Assembly: GCA_963714085.1 (NCBI GenBank)
Contig: OY970229.1
Coordinates: 100,849 to 164,848, forward strand
Source: an uncultured Candidatus Micrarchaeota archaeon
Lineage (GTDB): Archaea > Micrarchaeota > Micrarchaeia > Anstonellales > Bilamarchaeaceae
Direction of reading: 5' to 3'
Length of the DNA: 64,000 bases
Below the pieces are notes generated by a model. It made no database searches, was not told where the DNA came from, and saw only the letters and a list, made by a program, of their open reading frames with translations. Below are positions 27,736 to 61,133 of this stretch, piece after piece. The stretch's first letter is position 1; the number at the start of each line of letters is the position of its first letter. The translations under genes were made by a program, and so were the position numbers.

Positions 27736-27797
27736 GAATGTGTCAAAAGAAGGTAAGACATAATTTTATAAAAGGTTTTCAGCAATAGATAACGATG
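27736..27797 (+). promoter_or_regulatory. Conserved promoter/leader element with TATA box TTTTATAAAA about 22 nt upstream of the B1 ATG. It is repeated upstream of B2.
   Basis: gaatgtgtcaaaagaaggtaagacataattttataaaaggttttcagcaatagataacgATG is about 85% identical to 29062..29126. Confidence 0.55.
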
Positions 27798-29036
27798 GCA
27801 GAAGGACCAGTTCATTCACCTCCAATCGCAAGGCCGGCTGCGCCCAGGACGCTGTTGGATGTCGTCAAACGCCACGCGCCAGAGATCCACGAGCGCATCG
27901 CAGGGCCGAGAAATCCGGAACTTGATGCGCTCTCCTATATCGTGAAACGGGCCATGGCCTCCCAAAGCGAGGACGACCCCGCGCTGAGGTCGCAGATACA
28001 CTCGCTGCCGCCGGAATCCATCGCGACGATACTGCTCAAAGCATACCGGCCCAAAGAGAGCTACGCCATAATGATGAGCGGCCCGGAGATCATCGAGTTC
28101 ATCGCCCGCTGGAAAGGGGACGCGGAGAGCATCCCATCGCCCTGGCCCGCGTGGTTTATCCCGAGCCGGCCAGCTTGCGGGGAAACAAGACCCGGTTCTT
28201 TGCAGTCATTCGCGGAATTTGTGGAGAGATGGCATGCTGAACCGAAGCCCGGATGCGACGCGGACCCCGAGGTGGCGTCCTCCGAGTTTTCGGCTGTTTT
28301 CGCCAATGTCCTGAAAGGCGTGGAAAGCCTGGCCGCCAGGAACTCCGGACTGCTCGCGGGGCTGGCCGCGGACGCGTGCGAGTTCATCGCCTGCCTCCTG
28401 GCCACGCAGCCGGAAGCCGCGGCCGCACGTTTCGTGATTACGGACATGTTGATCGCGGATAAGCGCACCATCTCGGATATGCAGCCCGAGGGAACGTATG
28501 CCGACATCGGTTGCGGAATGAGCGGCGTCGCCTGCATGCATGCGCTGGACAGGCGGCTTGTGCTGGTCGACAATGACGCGCTGATGACCGGGATCCTCGC
28601 GTCATACGCGCGGAGGACGGGCAGGGGGAATGCGGAGGTCAGGAACACGGACATCACCTCGGGCACCTGCGATGAGGGCTCGTTGGGATTGGCGAACGTG
28701 GAATACGTGCTCCATTACCTGTCCGAGGGGCAGATAGTCGATGCGATACGCAATCTGGCCCCTGCGCTCGCGGACAACGGGCTGATGCACATATGGGAAC
28801 CCGAGGAAGGATGCTGCAGATTCGAGAGCCCGGAGAAGATAAACGCGATAAGAATGGGGCTGGCGGGGAGCGGCCTTTTTTTCTTTGAGAGGAGGATAGA
28901 ACTGCGTTCCATCTGGTCGCCCTTGGTCAGGTCGAAATGGGACGTCGAGTTCGTCGCCGCGAGGAGAAGGGAGGAGCTTGAGAGGGCGATGGCTGTGCGG
29001 GATTCGGCGTTGCAGTCGCAGGATCCGGATCCTTAG
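27795..29036 (+). CDS. Class-I SAM-dependent methyltransferase B1 with an N-terminal helical (dimerisation-like) domain
   Basis: YADIGCGMSGVACMHAL is motif I. LVLVDND is the motif II acidic loop. EYVLHYL is motif III. Confidence 0.6.
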   Translation: MAEGPVHSPPIARPAAPRTLLDVVKRHAPEIHERIAGPRNPELDALSYIVKRAMASQSEDDPALRSQIHSLPPESIATILLKAYRPKESYAIMMSGPEIIEFIARWKGDAESIPSPWPAWFIPSRPACGETRPGSLQSFAEFVERWHAEPKPGCDADPEVASSEFSAVFANVLKGVESLAARNSGLLAGLAADACEFIACLLATQPEAAAARFVITDMLIADKRTISDMQPEGTYADIGCGMSGVACMHALDRRLVLVDNDALMTGILASYARRTGRGNAEVRNTDITSGTCDEGSLGLANVEYVLHYLSEGQIVDAIRNLAPALADNGLMHIWEPEEGCCRFESPEKINAIRMGLAGSGLFFFERRIELRSIWSPLVRSKWDVEFVAARRREELERAMAVRDSALQSQDPDP

Positions 29037-29061: not shown

Positions 29062-29126
29062 ACCCGGACGATATGTGTCCAAAAACGGTAAGACATAATT
29101 TTATAAAAGGTTTCCGCCAATAGATG
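29062..29126 (+). promoter_or_regulatory. Second copy of the conserved TATA-containing promoter element (upstream of B2)
   Basis: gatatgtgtccaaaaacggtaagacataattttataaaaggtttccgccaatagatgataATG. Confidence 0.55.
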
Positions 29127-30287
29127 ATAATGGCGATCATACGCACTGCCCATTCCACTCCAGGCCCAGCGCAATCCAAGCCGGAAGCCGTCCGCGCACC
29201 GGGGATACTCGAGCCCATCATCGGGCAGAGGAGGCGGGGGCTGGACGAACTCTCCAGCGCGGTGAAGAGCGCCATCGCTTCCCAGCGCGGGGTGGATTCC
29301 ACACTGAGGGAGCAGATAGACTCGCTGTCTCCGGCATGCGTCGCAATGATCCTGCTCGGCACATACCGGCCCAGGGAGACTCATGAGCTTGGCATCAAAG
29401 ACCCGGAAGTCATGGCGTTCGTGGCTCGCTGGAAATGGGGCGGGGAGAGCGTCCAGCTGCCTCTGCCCCGGCTCGATGAGACTTCCGGTGAAGGGGACAT
29501 AGGAAAAGTTTTGGATTTCATCAAGGTCATGGCGGCAAAATCGGCTTTTTTCAACGAGGTCGTGGAAAGGATCGGAAAGCTGACCGCGAGGAACACCGGA
29601 CTCCTGAGGAGGATAGCCGCGGACGCTGGCGAGTTCCTCTCCTGTTTCCTGACAGAGCAGCCCGAAGCCGCTGGCTCGCAGTTCAGTTTCGAGGAGGTGT
29701 CGTTCGTGAACAAGCTGCGGATATCCTCCATACAGCCGGAAGGGGTTTTCGCGGACATCGGCTGCGGCGAGGACGGCCTCATCTGCGTGGACGTATTGGA
29801 CAGGCCGCTCCTGCTCACGGACAAGAACGCGCTGGTGACCGGGATGCTCGCGTCCTATTCGTCGAGACAGGGCAGGGAGGACGTGGACGTCAGGACCGAC
29901 GACATCGTTTCAACGTCGTACGAACCCGGCTCCCTGGGACTGATCAACATGCAGCTCGTGCTGCATTACCTTTCCGAAAGGCGGATAGCGCGTGCGATAG
30001 GCAACCTGGCCCCCGCGCTCGCGTACAACGGGCTGATGCACATAGTGGAACCGGAAGCGGGATGCTGCGGCTTTGACAGCCCTGGGAAGATAAGCGTGAT
30101 AAGGAGGGAGCTCAGAAGGCACGGCCTTTTCGTGGCTGAGGGGCTGATGGAAGAGAGGAACCACCCTTCGTGCCGGTTGGAAAAGCGGTCCATCGTGGAG
30201 ATCGTCGCCGCGAGGAGGGAGGAGGACTTCGGGAGAACCTCGGCCACCAGGGATCCGGACGGGTCCTGGAAGCTTGGCGAAAGTTAA
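29124..30287 (+). CDS. Class-I SAM-dependent methyltransferase B2 (paralogue of B1)
   Basis: FADIGCGEDGLICVDVL and LLLTDKN are present. It is collinear with B1 but strongly diverged. Confidence 0.6.
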   Translation: MIMAIIRTAHSTPGPAQSKPEAVRAPGILEPIIGQRRRGLDELSSAVKSAIASQRGVDSTLREQIDSLSPACVAMILLGTYRPRETHELGIKDPEVMAFVARWKWGGESVQLPLPRLDETSGEGDIGKVLDFIKVMAAKSAFFNEVVERIGKLTARNTGLLRRIAADAGEFLSCFLTEQPEAAGSQFSFEEVSFVNKLRISSIQPEGVFADIGCGEDGLICVDVLDRPLLLTDKNALVTGMLASYSSRQGREDVDVRTDDIVSTSYEPGSLGLINMQLVLHYLSERRIARAIGNLAPALAYNGLMHIVEPEAGCCGFDSPGKISVIRRELRRHGLFVAEGLMEERNHPSCRLEKRSIVEIVAARREEDFGRTSATRDPDGSWKLGES

Positions 30288-39637: not shown

Positions 39638-40906
39638 TCACTTCTTCGAGCGTATCCCCTCAAGGACCTCCTTGGCGAAGTCCGAGCCGAAGTTCTTCTT
39701 CTCAGCGAGCTCCGCGGCGACCGCGTCTATCTCCTGGGGGGTCTGCGCCCCGGCTATCACCGCGACGTTCTTCGCATGGAGCTTCATGTGGCCGGCCTGT
39801 ATGCCGACGCTGCTCAATGCGGCCAGCGCGGCGAAGTTGTTCGCGAGGCCGACGCACGCGCACGCCATGGCCAGTTCCTTGGACGTCTTTATCCCGGCTA
39901 TCTTGAGCGCGATCCTGGCTGTCGGGCTGGAGTTCACCGCGCCTCCGACCGTGGCGACCGCCATCGGCAATTCGATGCTTCCGAGCAGGTCGCCCTTCTC
40001 CGTCGCCTCGTAGCGCGTCAGCGGATGGTACTCGCCCATGGACGCGTAGGCGTGCGCCCCGGCCTCCACGGCGCGCCAGTCGTTGCCGGTCGCGAGCACG
40101 ACCGCGTCTATCCCGTTCATCACGCCCTTGTTGTGGGTCGCGCAGCGGTAGATGTCGGCTTTCGCGAGCTCGTAGCCGTCCAGGATGCCCTCGACGACCT
40201 TGTCGCCGATGACGCCCTTCTTCCAGACCGCGGACGCGCGGACCTTGCGCTTCACCGCGAGGTTCGTGATTATGCGCAGGCACACCCTGCCGTTCGTGAG
40301 CGTCGCGAGGGTCGGGGCCACGCCCTCGAGAGTGGTGTTCACCATGTTCGCGCCCATCGCGTCGCTCACGTTTATGTCGAACTCCACGAGCAGCATCTTC
40401 CCCCTCCGGGTCTCGAGCGCCCTCTCGCGGAAGCCGAGCACCTTGCCTCCCCACCTCTCGTGGGGCTTCATGTACTCGGCGGCTATCTTGATTATCTCGT
40501 GCCTGTTCGTGTCCAGGTTCCTGATCGCCAGGTCCATGTCAGGCACGTCCATGAGCTGCACCTGGCCTGTCATCACCGGCTCCTCGGCCTCTGCCTTGAA
40601 CCCCTCGGGCAGGCAGAGCTTGGCCGCCCTGCACGCCGCTGCTATCACCGAGGGCTCCTCCAGAGCCATGGGGATGACCAAAGACTTGCCGTTTATCTTG
40701 AAATTAGTAGCCATGCCGAGCGGCAGGTGGACCGCGCCTATCACGTTCTCCACCATCCGGTCCGCTAATTCCGGCTTGAGCGCGCCCATGTCGCTGAGCG
40801 CTGCCATCTCCTCGTCCGAGACGCCGGAATTCTCCTTTATCAGCTTCCGCCTCTCCGGAATAGTGAGCTTGTAAAAGCCTGAAAAGTCAGCCATGGTGCG
40901 ATTCAT
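39638..40906 (-). CDS. hmgA: Hydroxymethylglutaryl-CoA reductase (class I, NADPH)
   Basis: ELPMAVATVGGA, GANMVNTTLEGVAP and DAMGANMV-type motifs. The start is at MNRTMADF. The 160 codons upstream in the track ORF are Arg/Ala/Pro-rich and non-coding. Confidence 0.9.
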   Translation of the reverse strand: MNRTMADFSGFYKLTIPERRKLIKENSGVSDEEMAALSDMGALKPELADRMVENVIGAVHLPLGMATNFKINGKSLVIPMALEEPSVIAAACRAAKLCLPEGFKAEAEEPVMTGQVQLMDVPDMDLAIRNLDTNRHEIIKIAAEYMKPHERWGGKVLGFRERALETRRGKMLLVEFDINVSDAMGANMVNTTLEGVAPTLATLTNGRVCLRIITNLAVKRKVRASAVWKKGVIGDKVVEGILDGYELAKADIYRCATHNKGVMNGIDAVVLATGNDWRAVEAGAHAYASMGEYHPLTRYEATEKGDLLGSIELPMAVATVGGAVNSSPTARIALKIAGIKTSKELAMACACVGLANNFAALAALSSVGIQAGHMKLHAKNVAVIAGAQTPQEIDAVAAELAEKKNFGSDFAKEVLEGIRSKK

Positions 40907-40917
40907 CTCCAAAGAAG

Positions 40918-41373
40918 TTATAAACTGTAGCTGTCCTCGAGTTTTTTCAGCGCTGCGTCTATGTTCCCGAACGCGGAATCCGCCTTGCGGAAGTAGAAAT
41001 CGCGGAACAGGGAGTTGAGGCTCTTGCCCTCGTCCTCCGAAAGCGCGTAGCGCCCCTTCTTCCTTGTGAGCATGCCCGCGTTCTTGAGCCTCAGCAGGTG
41101 GTAGTACACCGCCTTGGCGTTCGGCTTGGCGCGCGTCTCTGCCTCCAGCCGGTCGAGTATGTCCTTGGTGGTCGGCGACTCCTTCCTCACGTGGAAATAC
41201 AGCAACGCGTCGAACACGTCGAGGAGCAGCGTCCTGGACTCGTTTGGCAGTATGAGCCCCAGCGAGAGCGCGACCCAGCGCACCAGCGACTTCCGCGCGA
41301 GCAGCACGTCCTGGGGGAGCGCCATGTCCCGCAGCACGAGCTCCGACCTTATGAGCCTTGATTCTGGAATCAT
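40918..41373 (-). CDS. Winged-helix (MarR/PadR-like) transcription regulator
   Basis: YYHLLRLKNAGMLTRKKGRYALSEDEG is a recognition helix plus wing. It lies upstream of hmgA on the same strand, with an 11-nt gap. Confidence 0.55.
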   Translation of the reverse strand: MIPESRLIRSELVLRDMALPQDVLLARKSLVRWVALSLGLILPNESRTLLLDVFDALLYFHVRKESPTTKDILDRLEAETRAKPNAKAVYYHLLRLKNAGMLTRKKGRYALSEDEGKSLNSLFRDFYFRKADSAFGNIDAALKKLEDSYSL

Positions 41374-41449
41374 GTTTGAATCTCCATGCCATACAATAAA
41401 AACCTTATCAATCACGTTAGTAACCAGATGGAAGGCGGGTTTTGAGAAA

Positions 41450-44004: not shown

Positions 44005-45609
44005 ATGGCCAGGCATAAGGCCGGAAGGCTCGGCTTCCAGCAATCACGCATGGTTACGCCCCCTGCAGGCGCTTTCAGTCCGTATCTGGCAGGGCCGGAC
44101 ACGGGGATGCGGACCGGCGCGCCTCACGGATCCGTGCCGGCGAAGCGCTTGTGGAGGCGCCGCATGCTCGGCCCGGTCGCCGGCCTCATGCTGGGCGCGC
44201 TTTTTGTTTGCGGGATACAGGGCGGGGCGCAGGGGCGCACGCACCATGGGATGCGCGCGGACGGCCTGCTTTCCGAGGCTCTTGTCATGGCGGTAATGGA
44301 CAAACATGCCGCCATAGCGGAGATGCTCCTCAAGCGCGGGGCGGATGCGAACGCAACCGGTCCTTTCAACAAGACCGTCCTGATGTGGGCTGCGGAAAAC
44401 GGGGATGTAGAGACGGTGAACCTGCTCTTGGACCGCAATGTCGACGTGAACCTCAAGGACACCTGGTTCAGCGGCACCGCGCTGATGCGGGCCGCGGAGA
44501 GGGGCCACGGCGAGATCGTGGACCTGCTGCTGAGCAACTATGCGGATGTCAATGCCAGGAACAAGAACGGCGATACCGCGCTGACCTTGGCGGTCAGAAG
44601 CGGGAGTCCGAGGGTGGTGAACAGCCTGATCGTCGGAGGGGCAGAGATAGACGCCAAGAACGCCAACTGGGACACCGCACTGGGCCTGGCGGTGAAGAAG
44701 CCGGACGAGGCCCTCGTAGACCTGCTGCTGAGGAAGGGGGCAGACCCCAACGTGAGGGACAGATCCGGCGTCAGCCTGCTTGAGATCGCCTCTGCGACCG
44801 GGGACAGGAGGGATGTCACGCTGCTGATACGGAACGGGGCCCGCGTAGATCCGAATCTGAAGGACACGGTCACCATGTGGAACGCCTACCAGAAGAGGAG
44901 GACGGCGATAGAGCGGTCCGAGAAGCCTGGACTGGGCGAGAAAGACGACGGGGAGACCGCGCTCAAGCGCGCGTACGGAGAGCTGGTCATAGGCGAGAAA
45001 GAGGCGCTGGAATTGCACGAGAGGTTCGGGATAGAGGAGTTCGACAGGTATCCCAAAGGGGTGCTCGAGAGCATGTACGCTAACCTCGGCAGGCAGGCCG
45101 CCAGGCCGCCCATCCTCCACGTAGTCGCGAGATCGGATTACAGCGGCGCGGTCTATGACTACATCGGCTGGGTGTTCAAGCTGGACCATTACAAGGCGTT
45201 CATAGCCGAAGCGGAAAGCGTGGTGGACCTACGGTCCCGGGTGAGGTATACCGCAGAGACCTACGGCAGGATCGAGTCGATGGTGCTTGGGGGCCATGGC
45301 GAGAAGGACAGGATACAGCTCGGATACAAGGAGAATGGAGGAATCCTCACGCTGCGCGATGAGAACGACATCGCGCAGCTGAAGCCGTATTTCGTGAGCA
45401 ATCCGACCATCGTGATCGACGCGTGTTCGACCGGGGAAGACGAGATGGCCATAGCCGCCATGTTCTCGAGGGCGCTCGATGCGACCGCGTTCGCACCGGT
45501 CGCGGTCGCGGAGTTCCGTGGATGCGAAGTGGACGACCAGGGAAGGATAACCGGGGCGCGCTTCGACGTGCCGACCGCCAAGTTCGTGAGCGGCAAGCTG
45601 GTGAAGTGA
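44005..45609 (+). CDS. Ankyrin-repeat protein with a C-terminal CHAT/caspase-like (C14-fold) peptidase domain
   Basis: At least five ANK repeats (GADANATGPFNKTVLMWAAENGDVETVNLLL..., TALMRAAERGHGEIVDLLL..., DTALTLAVRSG...). A C-terminal His motif VLGGHGEKDRIQLG and Cys motif IVIDACSTGED match the GHG...L.L.D / D-A-C-x-G dyad of CHAT/caspases. The N-terminus has a hydrophobic segment. Confidence 0.55.
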   Translation: MARHKAGRLGFQQSRMVTPPAGAFSPYLAGPDTGMRTGAPHGSVPAKRLWRRRMLGPVAGLMLGALFVCGIQGGAQGRTHHGMRADGLLSEALVMAVMDKHAAIAEMLLKRGADANATGPFNKTVLMWAAENGDVETVNLLLDRNVDVNLKDTWFSGTALMRAAERGHGEIVDLLLSNYADVNARNKNGDTALTLAVRSGSPRVVNSLIVGGAEIDAKNANWDTALGLAVKKPDEALVDLLLRKGADPNVRDRSGVSLLEIASATGDRRDVTLLIRNGARVDPNLKDTVTMWNAYQKRRTAIERSEKPGLGEKDDGETALKRAYGELVIGEKEALELHERFGIEEFDRYPKGVLESMYANLGRQAARPPILHVVARSDYSGAVYDYIGWVFKLDHYKAFIAEAESVVDLRSRVRYTAETYGRIESMVLGGHGEKDRIQLGYKENGGILTLRDENDIAQLKPYFVSNPTIVIDACSTGEDEMAIAAMFSRALDATAFAPVAVAEFRGCEVDDQGRITGARFDVPTAKFVSGKLVK

Positions 45610-50977: not shown

Positions 50978-51748
50978 TTGCATGCTTATTCCATGAAACT
51001 GCTCAAACTGGGGGGCTCTGTGATAACCCGGAAGTCGGGATGGCGCGAGGCGGACCTCAAGGCGATAGAGGCGCTGGCGGACGTCGTGGCCTCGGCATGG
51101 AAGAAGTCCGAGCGCGACTGGGTGCTCGTGCACGGGGCAGGCTCGTTCGGCCACCCGCTGGTCGTCAAGTACGGCATCAACGACGGCGTGAAGAACGCTG
51201 CGCAGAAGCTCGGGTTCGCGATGACGCACGAGGCATGCTCGGAATTGTCCGTGCTCGTCGTCGGAACGCTCAACAGCGCCGGAATGCCCGCGGTGCCGGT
51301 TCCGCCCGCCATGGTGATAACCTCCAAGAACAGGCGCATACACTCATTCAACACGAAAGTGGTCGACGATTACCTGAAATCCGGGTACGTGCCAGTGCTT
51401 TTCGGGGACATGGTCCCCGACATAGAGCTCGGCGGCTCGGTGTGCTCCGGGGACCAGATAATATCCTACCTGGGCAAGGCTGCGGAGCGCATACTCCTAG
51501 CCACGAACGTGGACGGGGTGCTCGACGACAAGGGAAAGGTCATTGAGCAGATAACGGGCAGGAACTTCGCGGACGTCTCGCGGCATTTCAAGTCCGCGGA
51601 AGGCGACGTCACCGGGGCAATGGCAGGCAAGATAAAGGAATTGCTCGAGCTTGATACTCCTTCTTACGTGGTCAACGGGCTGAAGCCTGAGCGCGTGGAG
51701 GCGCTCATGCTCGGGAAGAGGGCGGTCTGCACCGAGATAAGGAAATGA
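50978..51748 (+). CDS. ipk: Isopentenyl phosphate kinase (amino-acid-kinase fold)
   Basis: LLKLGGSVIT (the glycine-rich loop) and VLVHGAGSFGHP. 256 aa. It is divergent from the ubiX operon. Confidence 0.8.
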   Translation: MHAYSMKLLKLGGSVITRKSGWREADLKAIEALADVVASAWKKSERDWVLVHGAGSFGHPLVVKYGINDGVKNAAQKLGFAMTHEACSELSVLVVGTLNSAGMPAVPVPPAMVITSKNRRIHSFNTKVVDDYLKSGYVPVLFGDMVPDIELGGSVCSGDQIISYLGKAAERILLATNVDGVLDDKGKVIEQITGRNFADVSRHFKSAEGDVTGAMAGKIKELLELDTPSYVVNGLKPERVEALMLGKRAVCTEIRK

Positions 51749-51787
51749 TGAACACAAAATGTAATCATTTATAAGATAATCCCATCA
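51713..51787 (+). repeat. 75-nt segment (last 12 codons of ipk plus a TATA-containing promoter) duplicated at 53149..53223 with 3 mismatches
   Basis: cgggaagagggcggtctgcaccgagataaggaaatgatgaacacaaaatgtaatcatttataagataatcccatca versus cgggaagaaggcggtctgcaccgggataaggaaatgacgaacacaaaatgtaatcatttataagataatcccatca. Confidence 0.9.
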
Positions 51788-51798
51788 TAACTTTTTTC

Positions 51799-53133
51799 AT
51801 GCCAGAGACAGCAACCGCCAGGGTTATTTTTGCGCCTAAGGCCAGCCGCGCTGTCCCGCCCAGGCGCTGCAAGCCGCATTTCTTCGCATGCCAGACAGAG
51901 GGCATACGCAAGCAGCCAAGGGGCGCCGGCAAAACCCGCAGGAAAGCCCTTCTGAACAGCGAGCTGGCAGGCCTCTGGGAGTTCGCTAAGAAGAGAAAGG
52001 CGACCATCTCGAAGAAAGAGGAGGCGGAGATGTTCGGGATATACCTGCGCGTGGTCAGGCGCATGCAGGAGCTGAAGCATCTGCGGGAAAGGTGGAACGG
52101 ACCCGTGAAACAGGAGCTCGTGCGCCTTTCCGAGGCGAAGGAGCTTGCGGAGAGGGTGGTCGCGAGCAGAGGGGACATGAGATACCTCAGGGAACTCGCT
52201 GCAGAGAAGAGGCGGTCGCTCGAGAAAGAGGAGGAATACGCCGTCTTCCGGATTTATAGGCGGGTGCTCCCCCGCATGATGAACCTCGGGAAGGGAGGCA
52301 TTGCAGCGAACGCGGAACACGGACTCGTGGCTCAGGAGATGGAGCGGCTTTCCGAGGCGAAAAGGCTTGCCGAGACCATAATCATCCAGACCATGGAAAA
52401 GCAGTTCTGGATGACAGCCAAATACGTGATCCACCCCTCGGTCATAGAAAAATCAGACCTCGTTCAGGAGGCCTGCATGGCTGTAGTAAGAAGAGCTATG
52501 CGCACCTTTGACCCTGACCAGGACTGCAGAATCTCCACGTACTGCCAGTTAGGGATAACGCGGGCCATGAAACGCGCGGTTCAGAATCAGGGGAAGACCA
52601 TCAGGATCCCGTGCAATACGTACACCATAAGCGCCAAGGTCAACAGAGCTTACATGGAATGCCGCAAATCTGGCTACGAGCCGACCGCGCAGGAGATAGC
52701 TGATCTTGCCGGACTCGACCTGAAGAAGGTCGTGAGATGCCTCGAAATGCCGGATACGCTCAGCATGGACGTTAGGCCAGAGGACAGGCTTGCATTAATC
52801 GATACGATTCCGGACAATGGCATGGATCCGCTGGAGACGCTTGTCAACGCTGAGGTGGGAAGCGTGGTGGAGACGCTCCTTGGGAAACTGAGGCCCGACC
52901 AGCGCAGGATATTGTGCATGAGGCAGGGCCTGGGCTGCAAAGAGCACACGTTGAAGGAGATCGCAGAAGTAGATGGATGCAGCGGCGAGAACATAAGGCA
53001 GAAGCTGTTCAAGATAGCGAGAAGGATACGCAATGCGAACAAGGCGCTGCTGCGCGAGTACCAGGGCTATGGCCCCGATGACGAAGCGCCATCCCATGAA
53101 CCCGGAGAGCAGGCCAGCGCCGGGCAGCGGTAG
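51799..53133 (+). CDS. Bacterial-type sigma-70 family protein (regions 2, 3 and 4 present) with a novel N-terminal extension of about 200 aa containing two internal repeats
   Basis: DLVQEACMAVVRRAMRTFDPDQDCRISTYCQLGITRAMKRAVQNQGKTIRIP is region 2.1-2.4 including the RTIRIP box. SGYEPTAQEIADLAGLDLKKV is region 3.0. LRPDQRRILCMRQGLGCKEHTLKEIAEVDGCSGENIRQKLFKIARRIR is region 4. The conserved WW of region 2.3 is replaced (YCQLGITR). Confidence 0.8.
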   Translation: MPETATARVIFAPKASRAVPPRRCKPHFFACQTEGIRKQPRGAGKTRRKALLNSELAGLWEFAKKRKATISKKEEAEMFGIYLRVVRRMQELKHLRERWNGPVKQELVRLSEAKELAERVVASRGDMRYLRELAAEKRRSLEKEEEYAVFRIYRRVLPRMMNLGKGGIAANAEHGLVAQEMERLSEAKRLAETIIIQTMEKQFWMTAKYVIHPSVIEKSDLVQEACMAVVRRAMRTFDPDQDCRISTYCQLGITRAMKRAVQNQGKTIRIPCNTYTISAKVNRAYMECRKSGYEPTAQEIADLAGLDLKKVVRCLEMPDTLSMDVRPEDRLALIDTIPDNGMDPLETLVNAEVGSVVETLLGKLRPDQRRILCMRQGLGCKEHTLKEIAEVDGCSGENIRQKLFKIARRIRNANKALLREYQGYGPDDEAPSHEPGEQASAGQR

Positions 53134-53148
53134 CCTGCCATCATGCCC

Positions 53149-53223
53149 GGGAAGAAGGCGGTCTGCACCGGGATAAGGAAATGACGAACACAAAATGTAA
53201 TCATTTATAAGATAATCCCATCA
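53149..53223 (+). repeat. Second copy of the 75-nt ipk-3'-end/promoter element
   Basis: See 51713..51787. It encodes a remnant ...GKKAVCTGIRK* of the ipk C-terminus. Confidence 0.9.
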
Positions 53224-53234
53224 AATGAATTCTC

Positions 53235-54578
53235 ATGCTCGCAGCAGAAACGGCCAGGCGCACTCATATCCAATCAGCCGGCACGGCCCGTCCTGGACGC
53301 AAAGCATTGAGGCTCGTCGCGTGCGAGACGGAGACGATCCGCAAGCATCCAGCCAACATCAACGGGGCCCGCGGGAAGCCGCTGTCTGCGAAGGAGATGA
53401 GATACCTCGAAAGGCTCGCTGCAGAAAGGAAGGAGGTCATCGGGAAAAAGGATGAGGCCGAGGTATCCGCGATATACCTGCGCGTGGTCTGGCGCATGGA
53501 GGAGCTGCAGGCGAAGCGGGCCACCAGGGCCGTGAGACTCGAACTCGAGCAGCTCTCCAATGCCAAGGGGCTTGCCGAGGGAATGGTCGTGAACGAGGCC
53601 GAGCTGCGGCAGCTCCGGGAAATCGCGGCGGAGAGGGCCAAGACGCTCGAGCCAGGAGTGGAACGGTACATCTGCACCATCTATCGGCGCGTGCACCCCC
53701 GCCTCATGAGTCTCAAGGAGGTCAACGAGGCGCAGAAAAAGATACCCGGGCAGCAGGGCTGCAAGGCCGAAAAGGAGCCCGGGCTCATCGAACGGGAGAT
53801 CAAACGGCTCGCAGAGCCGAAGAGGCTTGTCGAGGATATAGTCACCACCGGGTTGAACGCGTTATTCTATGACAGGGCCCGGCGCATCTTAAGGTACCCT
53901 GATTCCATAGAGCGGTGCGATCTCGTCAATGAAACCAAGATTGCTGTCATAAATAACGTCATGCCCCGTTTTGATCCGACCCTCGGTTACAGGCTGTCCA
54001 CGTACTGCAACTTGCCGATGAACCGGGTCATGGTACGCTACGTACAGACTCATAAGAGGGATATCAGGTGGCCGGTCTACATATGCGAGGCGATAGGCAG
54101 GTTGAGCAAGGCTTCGCAACTGCGCCGGAACCTGGAAGGCAGGGAACAGAGCATCGAAGAAATAAGGAAAACCACGGATCTCCCCCCGAGCGTGATCGCA
54201 GCGTGCATGAGAGCGCCGCAAACGGTCAGCCTGAGCGAAAAGCTGCGCCACGGTGAAGGGAAGAAGCGGATCGACCGTATCGAGGATACAAGCAGCGTGA
54301 ATCCGCTGGACGCGGTTTTCGATAGCAAAGCGAAGGATCTGGTGAACGAGTGCCTCGACGTACTCAGCCCGAGGTATGCGAGGATAATGCGCATGAGATA
54401 CGGCCAGGACCAGACGCTCGACGCGATCGCTGACCGGGAGGGCATATCAAGAGAGAGGGTGAGGCAGATACTGGCCAAAGCCTTGAGGACGCTGCGCAGG
54501 AAGAATAGGATGAAGCTGTGCGATTTCTACGGGGGCAAACCGCCCTGTTACGACCAGCAGGCTAATCTTGAGATGTAG
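53235..54578 (+). CDS. Second sigma-70 family paralogue (more divergent), with the same N-terminal repeat architecture
   Basis: DLVNETKIAVINNVMPRFDPTLGYRLSTYCNLPMNRVMVRYVQTHKRDIRWPVY is region 2. LSPRYARIMRMRYGQDQTLDAIADREGISRERVRQILAKALRTLRR is a canonical region 4.2 HTH. Confidence 0.8.
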   Translation: MLAAETARRTHIQSAGTARPGRKALRLVACETETIRKHPANINGARGKPLSAKEMRYLERLAAERKEVIGKKDEAEVSAIYLRVVWRMEELQAKRATRAVRLELEQLSNAKGLAEGMVVNEAELRQLREIAAERAKTLEPGVERYICTIYRRVHPRLMSLKEVNEAQKKIPGQQGCKAEKEPGLIEREIKRLAEPKRLVEDIVTTGLNALFYDRARRILRYPDSIERCDLVNETKIAVINNVMPRFDPTLGYRLSTYCNLPMNRVMVRYVQTHKRDIRWPVYICEAIGRLSKASQLRRNLEGREQSIEEIRKTTDLPPSVIAACMRAPQTVSLSEKLRHGEGKKRIDRIEDTSSVNPLDAVFDSKAKDLVNECLDVLSPRYARIMRMRYGQDQTLDAIADREGISRERVRQILAKALRTLRRKNRMKLCDFYGGKPPCYDQQANLEM

Positions 54579-54640
54579 GCGGGCGCTGGAGAGCAGGGCC
54601 TGAACCAAAACCATAAATATCACCAGCCAGATAACCGCTC

Positions 54641-55306
54641 ATGAACAAAAAGGCGCTCGCGTCCATGGGCTGGATAATCCGGACCATGAGCACCGAAGCC
54701 GGAAAAAGAAATCCTCCGGTCAACAAGGTGGACAGGATAACCCGCAGCAGCCCGTTCCGCGCGCTCGTCTTCACGATCCTTTCAGCGAGGACGAAGGACG
54801 CGAACACCATCGCCGCGGCGGGAAGGCTGCTCGAAAAAGCACCGACCCCGAAAGCGCTCGCGCGCATGCAGATAAAGAAAATAGAAAAACTCGTGCATTC
54901 TTCCGGATTCTACAGGATGAAGGCCAGGAACCTCTCCGCCATGGCGAAGATGCTTCTGACGGATTTCAACGGCAAGGTCCCGTCCGATATCGAGAGCCTG
55001 GTGCGCCTGCCGGGCGTAGGAAGGAAGACCGCTAACATCTTATTGGTCTATTCCTTCGGCAAGGACGCCATTCCGGTGGACACCCACGTGCACAGGATAA
55101 GCAATAGGCTGGGCATAGTGAGAACGAAGACGCCGGAGAAAACGGAGAAGGCGCTCATGTCCGCGGTCCCGAAGAGGCTCTGGAAACCGCTAAACCACGC
55201 GTTCGTGTCCTACGGCCAGACCATATGCCTGCCCAGGAACCCGAAGTGCAGGGAGTGCAAACTGAACAGGGTATGCTGGAGAATCGGCGTGCGCTCCGGT
55301 ATATAA
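54641..55306 (+). CDS. nth: Endonuclease III-type DNA glycosylase/AP lyase (HhH-GPD with 4Fe-4S loop)
   Basis: LPGVGRKTANILL is the HhH. The C-terminus is C-x6-C-x2-C-x5-C (CLPRNPKCRECKLNRVC). Confidence 0.85.
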   Translation: MNKKALASMGWIIRTMSTEAGKRNPPVNKVDRITRSSPFRALVFTILSARTKDANTIAAAGRLLEKAPTPKALARMQIKKIEKLVHSSGFYRMKARNLSAMAKMLLTDFNGKVPSDIESLVRLPGVGRKTANILLVYSFGKDAIPVDTHVHRISNRLGIVRTKTPEKTEKALMSAVPKRLWKPLNHAFVSYGQTICLPRNPKCRECKLNRVCWRIGVRSGI

Positions 55307-55460
55307 CGGTTTATGCTGAAATCAGACCAGGTGTATAAGATGAAAGTGCCTGCCAGCCACATAAAGCACATGAAAGACAAAAGGAAGTTCAACGAGAGCA
55401 AGGCTTATCTTGAGACGAAGAGGGACATGAACAAGCGCAGGAAGCGCAGGGACTGAGCAG

Positions 55461-56570
55461 TCACGGAAGGCAGTTTATCGGCGGCATCTTTCGCGCCGGC
55501 TCGAACGAGTCCCCGATCAAGCCTGCGAACACCCGGGCACCTTTGATTTCGACGCTACGGAGAACCGAAACCAATGGCGCATCGGCCGGGTTCTTCGGAT
55601 TCTCCGCGATCCGCTCTATGCCGCGGGCGAAGAGCTCGTTCTCGTATATCCCGTTCAGCTGGGCCCGCAGGGACGCGAGCTCCTCCAGAGGCAGCTCAGG
55701 CACGGAGACCTCGGAGCCGAGGGAGCCGATCAGCCGCTTGAATTCCCGGAGGCCGCCCAGGACGCCATCGATATTCCCCATGGTGGAATCGACGTATCCC
55801 TTGAAATCCACCGAAGGGTCCGGCTTGTCGATCTCGGCGTCGAGGGCCTTGGTGGATTCGTTCCAGGCCATCAGAAGGTTGCCGGTCCGGACCAGGACCA
55901 CGGCGCAGGATCGCAATGTTCTGGCATCCATGGACTCGCCACCGGAGTCGTCTATGGCGTCCATGCGCTCTTTTACCTTATCGTGCGAATCGAAGAAGGC
56001 GCGGATCAGCCGGCCTTCGATTTCCATGGAGCTCTTCATGAACACGGAGAACGTGTCGAACAGATACCCTTCGAAGACCAGCTCAGACGTGGCGCTGGGC
56101 GTGGTCCTGTCCAGGGCTTGGGCAGCACGCTTCCGGTCGTCGCATCCCATGCGCTCCCAGAGGTAGTGACCCACCTCATGGTCCACGGCGCTGTTTAAGA
56201 TGCGTTGGTCGTAGGTTATCTCGAAAGACGCGACCCGGCCGTCATCCTTGAAGCTGATCCGTCCCTCTAAAGACTGGAGCTTTCTGAGGTAAGCGGCCTC
56301 GGGCTCAGGCATGCGTCTCAAAATGGAGTCCGAAACCGCCCTCGGGACCAGGGAGACGGCGGGTATGGCGTCCGCCACCGGCTGGGGCCATCGCCCAAGC
56401 TCGCGCTCCACCGAGCCGCCGCGGCGTATGCCCTCGCACCGGGCATGCAGGGTCCCGAGCTCCTCCCTGATGGACCTTCTCTCCGCCATTATCGAAAGGC
56501 ATTCGCGGGTCGCGGTAGCGGTAAGCGCCGTGATGGCGACTGCTGCGATGATGCGATTGCGCGGCTTCAT
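55461..56570 (-). CDS. Secreted putative zinc metallopeptidase (HExxH)
   Basis: Signal peptide MKPRNRIIAAVAITALTATA. AVDHEVGHYLWERMGCDD carries HEVGH. Confidence 0.45.
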   Translation of the reverse strand: MKPRNRIIAAVAITALTATATRECLSIMAERRSIREELGTLHARCEGIRRGGSVERELGRWPQPVADAIPAVSLVPRAVSDSILRRMPEPEAAYLRKLQSLEGRISFKDDGRVASFEITYDQRILNSAVDHEVGHYLWERMGCDDRKRAAQALDRTTPSATSELVFEGYLFDTFSVFMKSSMEIEGRLIRAFFDSHDKVKERMDAIDDSGGESMDARTLRSCAVVLVRTGNLLMAWNESTKALDAEIDKPDPSVDFKGYVDSTMGNIDGVLGGLREFKRLIGSLGSEVSVPELPLEELASLRAQLNGIYENELFARGIERIAENPKNPADAPLVSVLRSVEIKGARVFAGLIGDSFEPARKMPPINCLP

Positions 56571-58413: not shown

Positions 58414-58483
58414 AATAATAAAAATCTACCCTTATAACAAAGACTGAAACAGCAGTCCACAGCGAGTGATGGGTTTTATTCAG

Positions 58484-58555
58484 GCCCTCGTAGCGCAGTG
58501 GTAGCGCGCGTCCTTGGTAAGGACGAGGTCACGAGTTCAAATCTCGTCGAGGGCT
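58484..58555 (+). tRNA. tRNA-Thr (anticodon GGU)
   Basis: Cloverleaf folded by hand. Acceptor GCCCTCG/CGAGGGC. D-arm GCGC-AGTGGTA-GCGC. Anticodon arm CGTCC-TTGGTAA-GGACG. T-arm ACGAG-TTCAAAT-CTCGT. Discriminator U. No encoded CCA. A T-rich tract follows. Confidence 0.9.
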
Positions 58556-58631
58556 TACTCCAGAACCAAACATGGGATGTTTTTGTTGGACGGCAGAGAG
58601 AAATTAAATATCTTTAGCAAGTAAGGAAAGT

Positions 58632-59317: not shown

Positions 59318-59453
59318 ATTTCCATCGCACGAACAAGGAACTTGAACCCGGAGTACATATTCCGTCGAGGGCTTTTTCCATTCAAACCCCGTATTTTCCG
59401 GCATGACGAACCATTTTAAACACTAAAAGCCATAATGGCATACGTGAACTTGA

Positions 59454-60011
59454 ATGAAAACACTGGCCATAAAGCGTGATCCGTTCAAAGCGCCCAAGGG
59501 GATGGAGAGCGTATACGCGATCGTGCGCCAGCAGCAGAAGCGCGAGATGCTGCGCCTCGAGCCCGAGGCGCGCCTCGAATGCGCGCTGGCGGAGAGGCAG
59601 CTTGGAGACGCGGCGGCGGCAGAGCGGAAAAGCGCCGCGAAGACCCTCGGGAAGCTGCGTTATCTGCATTCTTTCGAGCCGCTCCTGCATGCCCTCGCAA
59701 GAGAAAACGCGCCGGGCGACGAAGGCCGGGCGGTGAAGGCCGCCATGCTCAAGGCCCTCCGGAACATCGGTTCCGACCATTGCTGCCATATTGCGCTGGA
59801 GGTCGGGCGCGTGCCGCTCAGGGACTTCGCCATGGCGCACCTGGACGACCACGTGCTCGTGGGAAGCGCCCTCAATGCACTGGCATCGACCTGCTTGAGG
59901 TGCGAATCGCTCGCGGACATGGAAAAAGTCATGAAGGCCGCGGATGAGAAAGGATATAGAGAGACCGGTATCGCGGCGGGCAGCATCTGGCTCGATACTT
60001 TGAGAGACTGA
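59454..60011 (+). CDS. HEAT/PBS-lyase-like repeat protein (paralogue 1 of 3)
   Basis: Repeats of the form ERKSAAKTLGKLRYLHSFEPLLHALARENAPGDEGRAVKAAMLKALRNIGSDH. A conserved upstream leader is present (see finding). Confidence 0.6.
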   Translation: MKTLAIKRDPFKAPKGMESVYAIVRQQQKREMLRLEPEARLECALAERQLGDAAAAERKSAAKTLGKLRYLHSFEPLLHALARENAPGDEGRAVKAAMLKALRNIGSDHCCHIALEVGRVPLRDFAMAHLDDHVLVGSALNALASTCLRCESLADMEKVMKAADEKGYRETGIAAGSIWLDTLRD

Positions 60012-61057: not shown

Positions 61058-61133
61058 GACGCCCCGGGGCTTGGCCCGTCAAGAACGCAAGGTATTTAAA
61101 CACCAAAAGCCATAATAACATACGTGATAATGA

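Follow-up and report, generated by a model that had tools for sequence, protein, structure and literature searches.

A tandem pair of sigma-70 family genes in a Micrarchaeota genome appears to represent a rare archaeal clade with a conserved promoter

Why would an archaeon carry genes for bacterial-type sigma factors? Sigma factors define transcription initiation in bacteria, and TBP, TFB and TFE define it in archaea. The question is raised by two adjacent genes in a 64,000-nucleotide (nt) stretch of DNA from an uncultured Candidatus Micrarchaeota archaeon (assembly GCA_963714085.1, contig OY970229.1, forward strand, positions 100,849–164,848), hereafter called the window, to which all coordinates refer unless another contig is named. 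The genes, s1 (51799–53133, + strand, 444 amino acids (aa), the more derived paralogue) and s2 (53235–54578, + strand, 447 aa), encode true members of the sigma-70 family. Their relatives and gene neighbourhoods point to two paralogues of a rare, lineage-specific sigma-70 clade of Micrarchaeota-type DPANN genomes and, as argued below, they may serve as DNA-binding regulators.

The sigma-70 identity of both tandem genes, with regions 2, 3 and 4, had been proposed by an initial annotation made from the sequence and its open reading frames (ORFs), and it was upheld by HMMER searches with the Pfam and NCBIfam models, by a profile search of the PDB and by structure prediction. In s1, Sigma70_r2 (residues 216–266; 25.3 bits, gathering score 24), sigma3 (residues 280–346; 31.3 bits, gathering score 25.3) and sigma4 (residues 360–411; 37.7 bits, gathering score 24.1) all scored above the Pfam thresholds, together covering 52444–53031 (+). 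In s2, the sigma2–sigma3–sigma4 region occupies residues 226–427 (53910–54515, +), and the r4 domain (residues 373–421; 54351–54497, +) was the one to exceed its gathering score, at 58.1 bits. Region 2 of s2 falls below Pfam detection but aligns to RpoD_Cterm and to sigma factors in the PDB and is modelled as sigma2; its sigma3 domain was located by alignment and model. Both proteins exceeded the cut-off of the NCBIfam superfamily model TIGR02937 (59.3 bits for s1 and 79.2 for s2; cut-off 42.9) and aligned to RpoD_Cterm over residues ~217–427 (E 4e-26 and 1e-32, respectively). The RpoD equivalog TIGR02393 was not reached (92 and 113 bits versus 354), and both proteins lie far under every RpoD or RpoS equivalog cut-off in NCBIfam. 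Searched against the PDB, a three-sequence family profile matched RpoD and SigA chains across its positions 229–434 (E ~1e-44). The AlphaFold2 (AF2) model of s2, which is all-helical with residues 1–47 disordered (mean predicted local distance difference test (pLDDT) 78.7), superposed in Foldseek on SigA, HrdB and RpoD in holoenzyme structures. The two proteins share 36% identity over their full length. An identical 444-aa s1 protein is recorded in NCBI, ENA and Logan and the 447-aa form of s2 in NCBI and ENA; the representative of the s2 cluster (P0001) is the same gene in a shorter call of 423 aa. The RTIRIP/RDIRWP box described in the initial annotation is present, as KTIRIP in s1 and RDIRWP in s2. 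The start that it gave, position 51713, is not a gene start and falls inside the 3′ end of the upstream gene ipk, where a repeated upstream element begins.

How much of a working sigma factor is left was assessed from a table of key residues across the family, in Escherichia coli numbering. The sigma2–sigma3–sigma4 architecture, including the 3.2 linker, is complete and without large indels, as judged from the PDB profile and Foldseek. In region 2.3, positions Y425, F427, Y430, W433 and W434 read Y, L, Y, L, P in s2 and C, I, Y, L, G in s1. The tryptophan pair (WW) had been noted as lost from both copies, and it is indeed replaced by LP in s2 and LG in s1. The loss is not family-wide: most members retain WW, including P0248, P0202, P0200, L008, L010_a and L001, and its absence is confined to the window copies and close relatives. 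The region 2.2 motif D-L-I-Q-E-G-N-x-G-L contacts the beta′ clamp helices; its first part survives in the window copies as D-L-V-Q/N-E, and where the motif has G-N-x-G-L, s2 reads T-K-I-A-V and s1 reads A-C-M-A-V. The equivalents of Q437 and T440 are altered in both proteins, and those of H455 and E458 are N and T in s1. Across region 4.2 (R584, E585, R586, R588, Q589), s2 is fully canonical (R-E-R-R-Q, within SRERVRQ) and s1 is partly changed (G-E-N-R-Q, with G at 584 and N at 586). Elsewhere in the family P0248 is near-canonical, with DLVQEGNRGM and YKFSTYATWWIR, a TVRVP linker, H455/E458 and SRERVRQ. The majority of members keep the aromatic melting residues, the equivalents of H455/E458 and Q406/E407 and the TIRIP linker; L010_b lacks even the TIRIP box. 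On this residue gradient, the sigma2 determinants of promoter melting and −10 reading have decayed in the window copies, and the sigma4 helix-turn-helix has been kept.

The N-terminal half sets these proteins apart from bacterial sigma factors. Each begins with a tail that in the family is basic and disordered and carries a conserved C-E-x-E-T-I-x-K-x-P motif. In s1, alignments place the tail at residues 1–50 (51799–51948, +), with the motif form C-x-T-E-x-I-R-K-x-P and 13 lysine and arginine residues versus two aspartate and glutamate residues. The codons of the motif vary synonymously between loci, and the tail is therefore translated and constrained. Residues ~50–205 consist of two mutually homologous units of 70–87 aa, R1 and R2. 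In s1 these lie at 51949–52164 and 52165–52383 (51949–52383, +) and coincide with the DNA repeat families D1 and D3; in s2 they lie at 53382–53591 and 53592–53843 (53382–53843, +) and are modelled as two three-helix bundles. An internal repeat foreign to bacterial sigma factors had been proposed from the sequence; hhalign bore it out (R1 versus R2, probability 97.6%, E 3e-12), and the module proved to be family-specific. The isolated domain was predicted with a pLDDT of 80 and a predicted template modelling (pTM) score of 0.70, as six helices in two three-helix bundles. The N-terminal half had no match in Pfam, and its domain model had no viral structural match. The deeper members P0198, P0200, P0202 and P0248 have a single unit, from which it follows that the second one originated as an internal duplication in a subclade. 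Regions 1.1 and 1.2 were not detectable in s1 or s2. Descent of the repeats from a degenerate region 1.2, to which MAFFT placement and motifs such as RYLRELA...EEE lend a likeness by eye, failed statistically: hhalign against a bacterial region 1.2 alignment gave a probability below 1%, a region 1.2 hidden Markov model scored at most 2.5 bits on family N-termini, below shuffled controls, and PF00140 gave no match even at E≤10. Because these tests failed, the resemblance is a lead only.

The regulatory DNA in front of the genes is better preserved than the genes themselves. The same TATA element had been described ahead of both, and it belongs to a larger repeat. The first copy (51705–51798, +; direct repeat D2) comprises the last 44 nt of ipk (51705–51748), a core (51751–51787) that contains the TATA box TTTATAAG (51768–51775), and 11 nt leading to the ATG. 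The second (53141–53234, +) comprises a relic of the ipk 3′ end, the core (53187–53223) and the TATA box (53204–53211). As a direct repeat the two extend over 118 nt (51705–51822 and 53141–53258) at 86% identity, with a 37-nt core that is perfectly identical, and TTTATAAG stands exactly 31 nt ahead of the ATG of both genes. Identity between the two copies is 89% over the 94 nt that precede the ATGs and 95% over the first 83 of these; the coding DNA of s1 and s2 shows only 44–73% identity, and third-codon positions 33–73%. The copy ahead of s2 contains the ipk tail; it is therefore a relic of ipk that documents a tandem duplication of ipk tail, promoter and sigma gene. This non-functional relic can still be read as a mini-ORF of 13 codons (MPGKKAVCTGIRK*, 53143–53184, +). 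It differs from the real ipk tail at three of 44 aligned positions and is nearer to it than are the orthologous ipk tails of other species, despite the 36% identity of the sigma proteins; this likeness comes either from gene conversion or from the upstream element being functional.

The promoter core recurs in seven loci, in both of the locus types described below and in at least four different source assemblies or metagenomes, in the form (A/T)A(A/T)CACAAAnTGyAATnnTTTATAAGATAATCCCATCA, followed by 11 nt and then ATGCTCGC. No copy beyond those of s1 and s2 was found in the window, and the idea of a regulon reaching other window genes was dropped on that ground. A bacterial −35/−10 promoter was also considered, and a consensus scan found no such site at either copy. 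Many window genes, that for ABCE1 included, have a TTTAWA box 29–31 nt ahead of the ATG, and TATA-to-ATG spacing of that kind is a signature of leaderless archaeal transcripts. The upstream elements fit this archaeal pattern, with the TATA box at −31 and a start that is leaderless, and the promoter is thus an attribute of the family, held more tightly than the protein. Shared regulation or autoregulation would be the simplest reading of this conservation, and gene conversion may contribute to the likeness.

The family is rare. A word-indexed search over 5.8 billion clusters returned only the cluster of s2 itself and one relative at 53% identity; the rest were bacterial primary-like sigma factors, matching at 25–35% identity over the C-terminal 42–55% of the query. 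A full HMMER scan over 1.84 billion protein representatives added P0194–P0198, P0200, P0202 and P0248, so that about ten representatives of non-bacterial type are found among the 1.84 billion (P0002, P0194–P0198, P0200, P0202 and P0248 being those named). Narrow N-terminal patterns found no family member among GTDB species representatives, although the same patterns also missed the window's own genome; the sole GTDB retrievals, L004 and L005, proved to be bacterial sigma factors of Acidimicrobiia and were set aside. A scan of IMG/VR with the family N-terminal patterns found no relatives, and no account of the Micrarchaeota clade, its N-terminal module, loci or promoter was found among open-access papers and preprints.

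Every family member that could be placed on DNA sits in an archaeal-looking context, with neighbours such as Trm56, geranylgeranyl reductase, RtcB, archease, an aCPSF-like beta-CASP protein and mevalonate-pathway genes. Two locus types were seen. The first runs ipk–sigma(n)–nth; the second runs phosphoglucomutase–sigma (one or two copies)–phosphoribosyl pyrophosphate synthetase–...–DJ-1–ferredoxin–geranylgeranyl reductase (L008, L010 and L011). Tandem copies number two in the window, L010 and L011, three in L009, and two or three in the P0198 contigs. All nine members recovered complete are intact ORFs of ~340–450 aa; the remainder are fragments at contig ends. In L001 and L007 an s2-like gene immediately follows ipk, and related genomes have the orthologue of s2 as the only sigma gene behind ipk or as the first one there. 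A neighbour-joining tree of the sigma2–4 core paired s2 with L001 (86% bootstrap) and left s1 outside that pair. From this and the s2-like gene after ipk in L001 and L007, it follows that s1 is either an older paralogue lost in L001 or a fast-diverging duplicate. The tree did not recover a bipartition of the nine pre-defined members (11 of 100 bootstraps). P0248, which groups with P0202, turned out to belong to the family. Its inclusion would not alone restore a clean split, because P0202 and P0248 together branch next to the bacterial sequences and away from the remaining seven members.

That the sigma genes stand between ipk and nth in archaeal surroundings, as first described, is confirmed by the genes on either side. 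Upstream lies ipk (50978–51748, +), encoding an isopentenyl phosphate kinase of the AA_kinase family according to Pfam and conserved in this position in L001, L006, L007 and the P0198 contigs; downstream lies a gene for an nth-type HhH-GPD glycosylase (54641–55306, +; Pfam), likewise a conserved neighbour. The window also encodes ABCE1/RLI, HMG-CoA reductase, AcnX with its swivel subunit, UbiD-like and UbiX-like proteins, mevalonate kinase and an HTH_10 regulator; HMG-CoA reductase, AcnX and swivel subunit, UbiD, UbiX, isopentenyl phosphate kinase and mevalonate kinase together form the archaeal mevalonate route. Among the top 120 relatives of ABCE1, all named proteins come from Candidatus Micrarchaeota, Micrarchaeia or Bilamarchaeum, at 67–74% identity. 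The GC content of the sigma genes (0.58–0.59) falls within the range of 2-kb blocks across the window (0.52–0.62), and their GC content at third-codon positions matches that of their neighbours. Related contigs keep the order UbiD–UbiX–IPK–sigma (L001, L006) or UbiX–IPK–sigma (L007), and three P0198 contigs read Ank...AcnX–UbiD–UbiX–IPK–sigma (498 aa)–sigma (341 aa)–ORF–Nth–mevalonate kinase. Among the ~50 window ORFs scanned, neither a bacterial-type core RNA polymerase nor an anti-sigma partner was found. Gene content and composition alike point to an archaeal host in which the sigma genes are native. The ORF between the second sigma gene and nth in the P0198 contigs (ERZ1426824 and others) encodes 337 aa with no Pfam match and is maybe a third, more degenerate member.

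The rate of evolution was taken from a comparison of two genomes, that of the window and that of L001, as the ratio of non-synonymous to synonymous substitution rates (dN/dS). The neighbours ubiX (dS 0.46, dN/dS 0.07), ubiD (dS 0.69, dN/dS 0.09) and ipk (dS 0.55, dN/dS 0.13) all have low ratios; s2, at a dS of 0.52, has a dN/dS of 0.59 overall, 0.46 in the repeats and 0.74 in sigma2–4, and changes 5–9 times faster than they do. The ratio stays below 1 in all full-length and domain-level comparisons, with a 63-codon N-terminal fragment compared with L007 as the sole exception. Given intact ORFs and dN/dS values below 1, the sigma genes are therefore functional but fast evolving. The exceptional fragment, the first 63 codons of s2 (53235–53423 versus L007:1726–1914), shows a dS of 0.09 and a dN/dS of 1.6, with mostly non-synonymous differences, beside ipk genes at a dS of 1.25 and 64% aa identity. 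The sample is small; the pattern suggests that sequence has passed from one lineage to another, and it could also come from strong constraint at the nucleotide level or from a chimeric 1.9-kb contig whose parts were joined at the conserved promoter.

What, then, do s1 and s2 do? Our leading answer, held tentatively and with a confidence that stops a little short of even, is that they act as sigma-derived, sequence-specific DNA-binding regulators in an archaeal cell, drawn from a clade amplified within its lineage. The clade, which would descend from a bacterial group 1 or 2 (RpoD-like) sigma factor, has a helical N-terminal module peculiar to the lineage and doubled in one subclade; it has spread through tandem duplication at two housekeeping loci, always behind an archaeal leaderless TATA promoter of its own. 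The window copies are most likely no longer promoter-melting initiation factors. Their N-terminal bundles and tail motif may provide contact to a partner, either the archaeal basal machinery or another protein, and the conserved family promoter may be a site of common regulation or autoregulation. A repurposed DNA-binding regulator was one of two roles raised in the initial annotation, and it stands as the most economical reading of a protein that has kept its sigma4 helix-turn-helix and lost WW and GNxGL, although its function is something we infer. Several observations weigh against it. In the deeper members the residues for melting and for −10 and extended −10 recognition are all retained, which sits poorly with a plain helix-turn-helix regulator and suggests that the ancestral archaeal function still used sigma2 chemistry. 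For a dedicated regulator, the dN/dS of 0.6–0.7 seen in the sigma domains is high, and it fits relaxed constraint or a role in conflict equally well. The conserved promoter, by the consensus scan, is not a site of the −35/−10 type. A bacterial-type core polymerase in the remainder of the 1.57-Mb genome would also count against this role and is very unlikely.

The same retained sigma2 residues would suit a cofactor of the archaeal RNA polymerase, one whose sigma2 would dock on the universally conserved clamp coiled-coil of Rpo1 and which, in a role like that of TFE, would aid or redirect promoter opening together with TBP and TFB. Most members keep the melting aromatics, H455/E458, Q406/E407 and TIRIP, which speaks for long-term selection on sigma2 chemistry, and the entire sigma2–3–4 architecture with its 3.2 linker is retained. 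A niche for an extra melting factor is conceivable because DPANN archaea lack TFE-beta, according to a review (PMC7289017). The window copies, however, are without WW and GNxGL, and fast evolution is unusual for a basal factor. The docking site of sigma4, the bacterial beta flap-tip helix, has to our knowledge no obvious archaeal equivalent. We consider such a cofactor unlikely, and improbable the fuller version in which a DPANN lineage recruited and expanded sigma as an auxiliary or alternative initiation and melting factor for its polymerase, acting at the clamp coiled-coil beside TBP and TFB, with the window copies as specialized derivatives; were that true, it would be the first sigma factor working with a non-bacterial multisubunit polymerase. 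A part in genetic conflict, with genes domesticated from or exchanged with DPANN viruses or mobile elements, or serving as host decoys or sensors against them, would account for the high dN/dS, the recurrent tandem amplification and the variable copy number. It would also fit the start of the s2 gene, where the distance to L007 (dS 0.09) is far smaller than that between the adjacent ipk genes (dS 1.25), a hint of exchange between lineages. The best PHROG match is to a family of phage sigma factors, phrog_351 (E 1e-32 to 1e-33); moreover, DPANN viruses and a prophage with genes annotated ‘rpoS’ have been reported (PMC12647753). Yet none of the family loci adjoins an integrase, capsid, terminase or defence-system gene, housekeeping genes form a stable neighbourhood around them in several organisms, the IMG/VR scan with the family N-terminal patterns found no relative, the N-terminal model has no viral structural match, and similarity to the anti-phage protein MzaA (66 and 96 bits versus a cut-off of 800) lies in the shared sigma core only. 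A conflict role is, on balance, unlikely.

Loss of function altogether, with s1 and s2 as decaying remnants of an old bacterial gene transfer, draws on the dN/dS of 0.6–0.7, the progressive loss of key sigma residues along the family and the missing TIRIP box of L010_b. It is improbable in the face of nine intact genes among nine full-length members from several organisms, a dN/dS below 1 except in the 63-codon L007 fragment (1.6), purifying selection on the tail motif (synonymous third-position changes), a promoter more conserved than the coding sequence and repeated retention of duplicates. The second role raised in the initial annotation, an effector that is delivered into a bacterial partner and, in the manner of phage sigma factors, takes over the core RNA polymerase there, gains a little from deep family members that resemble competent sigma factors and from a giant surface protein in the window, which is consistent with an attached lifestyle. 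Nonetheless, s1 and s2 are net basic with no signal peptide or transmembrane segment (maximum Kyte–Doolittle 19-residue mean 0.8), and no secretion gene or peptidoglycan hydrolase, although the latter had been claimed for this window, was found among the ~50 ORFs scanned with Pfam. The window copies also lack the WW, GNxGL and −10-reading residues that the bacterial polymerase requires, and the known hosts of cultivated Micrarchaeota are archaea, of the Thermoplasmatales; delivery to a bacterium is very improbable. Least credible is an assembly chimera, or bacterial contamination in an archaeal contig. Logan unitigs of run ERR11594402 match 51758–53215 and 53194–56212 at 100% identity, and the two unitigs (L002 and L003) break only within the perfect 37-nt promoter core, exactly where the 118-nt repeat would break short-read assembly; for the order of s1 and s2 we therefore depend on the window assembly itself. 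A chimera is contradicted by independent ENA, JGI, NCBI and Logan assemblies, those of other samples and organisms among them, which repeat the ipk–sigma, sigma–sigma and sigma–nth adjacencies. Composition matches that of the neighbours, archaeal leaderless promoters are present, and the ipk relic before s2 documents tandem duplication in place. A DNA-binding regulator thus remains the reading that we prefer.

Several other features of the neighbourhood deserve mention. Between nth and the mevalonate kinase gene, the window carries a 369-aa ORF (55461–56570, −) with no Pfam, PHROG or PADLOC match, in an interval that holds just a 40-aa ORF in the syntenic P0198 contigs. A 534-aa ankyrin-repeat protein (44005–45609, +) is encoded upstream of the mevalonate cluster and also in a syntenic P0198 contig, and on the matching side of the L001 locus (L001:1–7105) HEAT-repeat proteins are encoded in an array; several relatives thus have repeat proteins of a eukaryote-like kind beside the ipk–sigma locus. 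The HMG-CoA reductase ORF (39638–41392, −) spans 584 aa with the Pfam domain starting at residue 178, and has either an N-terminal extension of ~175 aa or an over-long call. A tRNA-Thr(GGU) gene (58483–58556, +) was the sole RNA gene found in the window with ARAGORN and Rfam. Two adjacent paralogues, at 27795–29036 (weak methyltransferase match) and 29124–30287 (no Pfam match), share a near-identical promoter (ggtaagacataattttataaaaggttt; 27740–27794 and 29070–29123), a further case in which a promoter was copied together with its gene in a tandem duplication. Upstream of the genes at 59454 and 61134 lies the common motif ttTAAACACyAAAAGCCATAATrrCATACGTGA (59400–59453 and 61080–61133), with a TATA-like box at −39; the two resemble another pair of promoters specific to one gene family. 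At the start of the window, and running off it, is a giant ORF (2–~6700, −) that exceeds 2,200 aa; the 1,500 residues scanned contain ~10 HYR domains, a right-handed beta-helix/NosD region and a Big_3 Ig-like domain, and the protein is probably a surface adhesin. A gene of more than 2,973 aa lies ~4 kb from the sigma gene in L008.

Because the family is small, well delimited and equipped with a candidate cis-element, its role is directly testable. A vertically maintained and amplified archaeal sigma-70 family would be a natural experiment in mixing both initiation systems. If its members are plain DNA-binding regulators, they would exemplify the domestication of a basal bacterial factor following transfer between domains; if any member touches the archaeal polymerase, the textbook split between the two systems would change.

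Set beside known systems, the family is closest in its core to the bacterial group 1 and 2 sigma factors (RpoD, SigA, HrdB and RpoS), with which it shares the sigma2–sigma3–sigma4 architecture without large indels, a canonical region 4.2 in s2 and, for primary-like sigmas, 27–35% identity over the C-terminal ~200 aa. Unlike them, s1 and s2 are encoded by an archaeon behind an archaeal leaderless TATA promoter, have a family-specific tail and helical repeats where regions 1.1 and 1.2 stand, and, in the window copies, lack WW, GNxGL and the equivalents of Q437 and T440. Virus-encoded sigma factors (phrog_351) have a similar core (E ~1e-32 to 1e-33), but the family loci lie amid syntenic housekeeping genes, with no viral genes, and the IMG/VR scan found no relative. 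MzaA, of the MZA anti-phage system, likewise combines a sigma-70 core with a long non-sigma N-terminal region, and its NCBIfam and PADLOC models match s1 and s2 at residues ~217–429; a defence identity was rejected, the scores reflecting the generic sigma core and no Mza partners lying nearby (the neighbours being ipk and nth). TFB and TFE do the job of sigma in archaea, and TFE and sigma2 both use the clamp coiled-coil (PMC7289017); they have no relationship to sigma in sequence or fold, and functional overlap is speculation.

The nearest precedent is the report of sigma-70-class genes in DPANN archaea (fam00359), mainly in Woesearchaeota, in which mis-binning was excluded by context, no anti-sigma factors were found and the mechanism was left open (Castelle et al. 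2021, PMC8204110). Sigma-70 genes in an archaeon are thus not the novelty that they had seemed at first. That report stresses Woesearchaeota and gives no anatomy; its searched supplements contained no match to fam00359 or sigma, and the two sets are compared here by description. The family of the window is of Micrarchaeota type; it has repeats in an N-terminal module, forms tandem arrays at two syntenic loci, has a promoter of its own and shows a graded loss of sigma2 determinants. Sigma-70 in DPANN has been known since 2021; what is new here is the clade, the N-terminal module, the two loci, the family promoter and the residue gradient.

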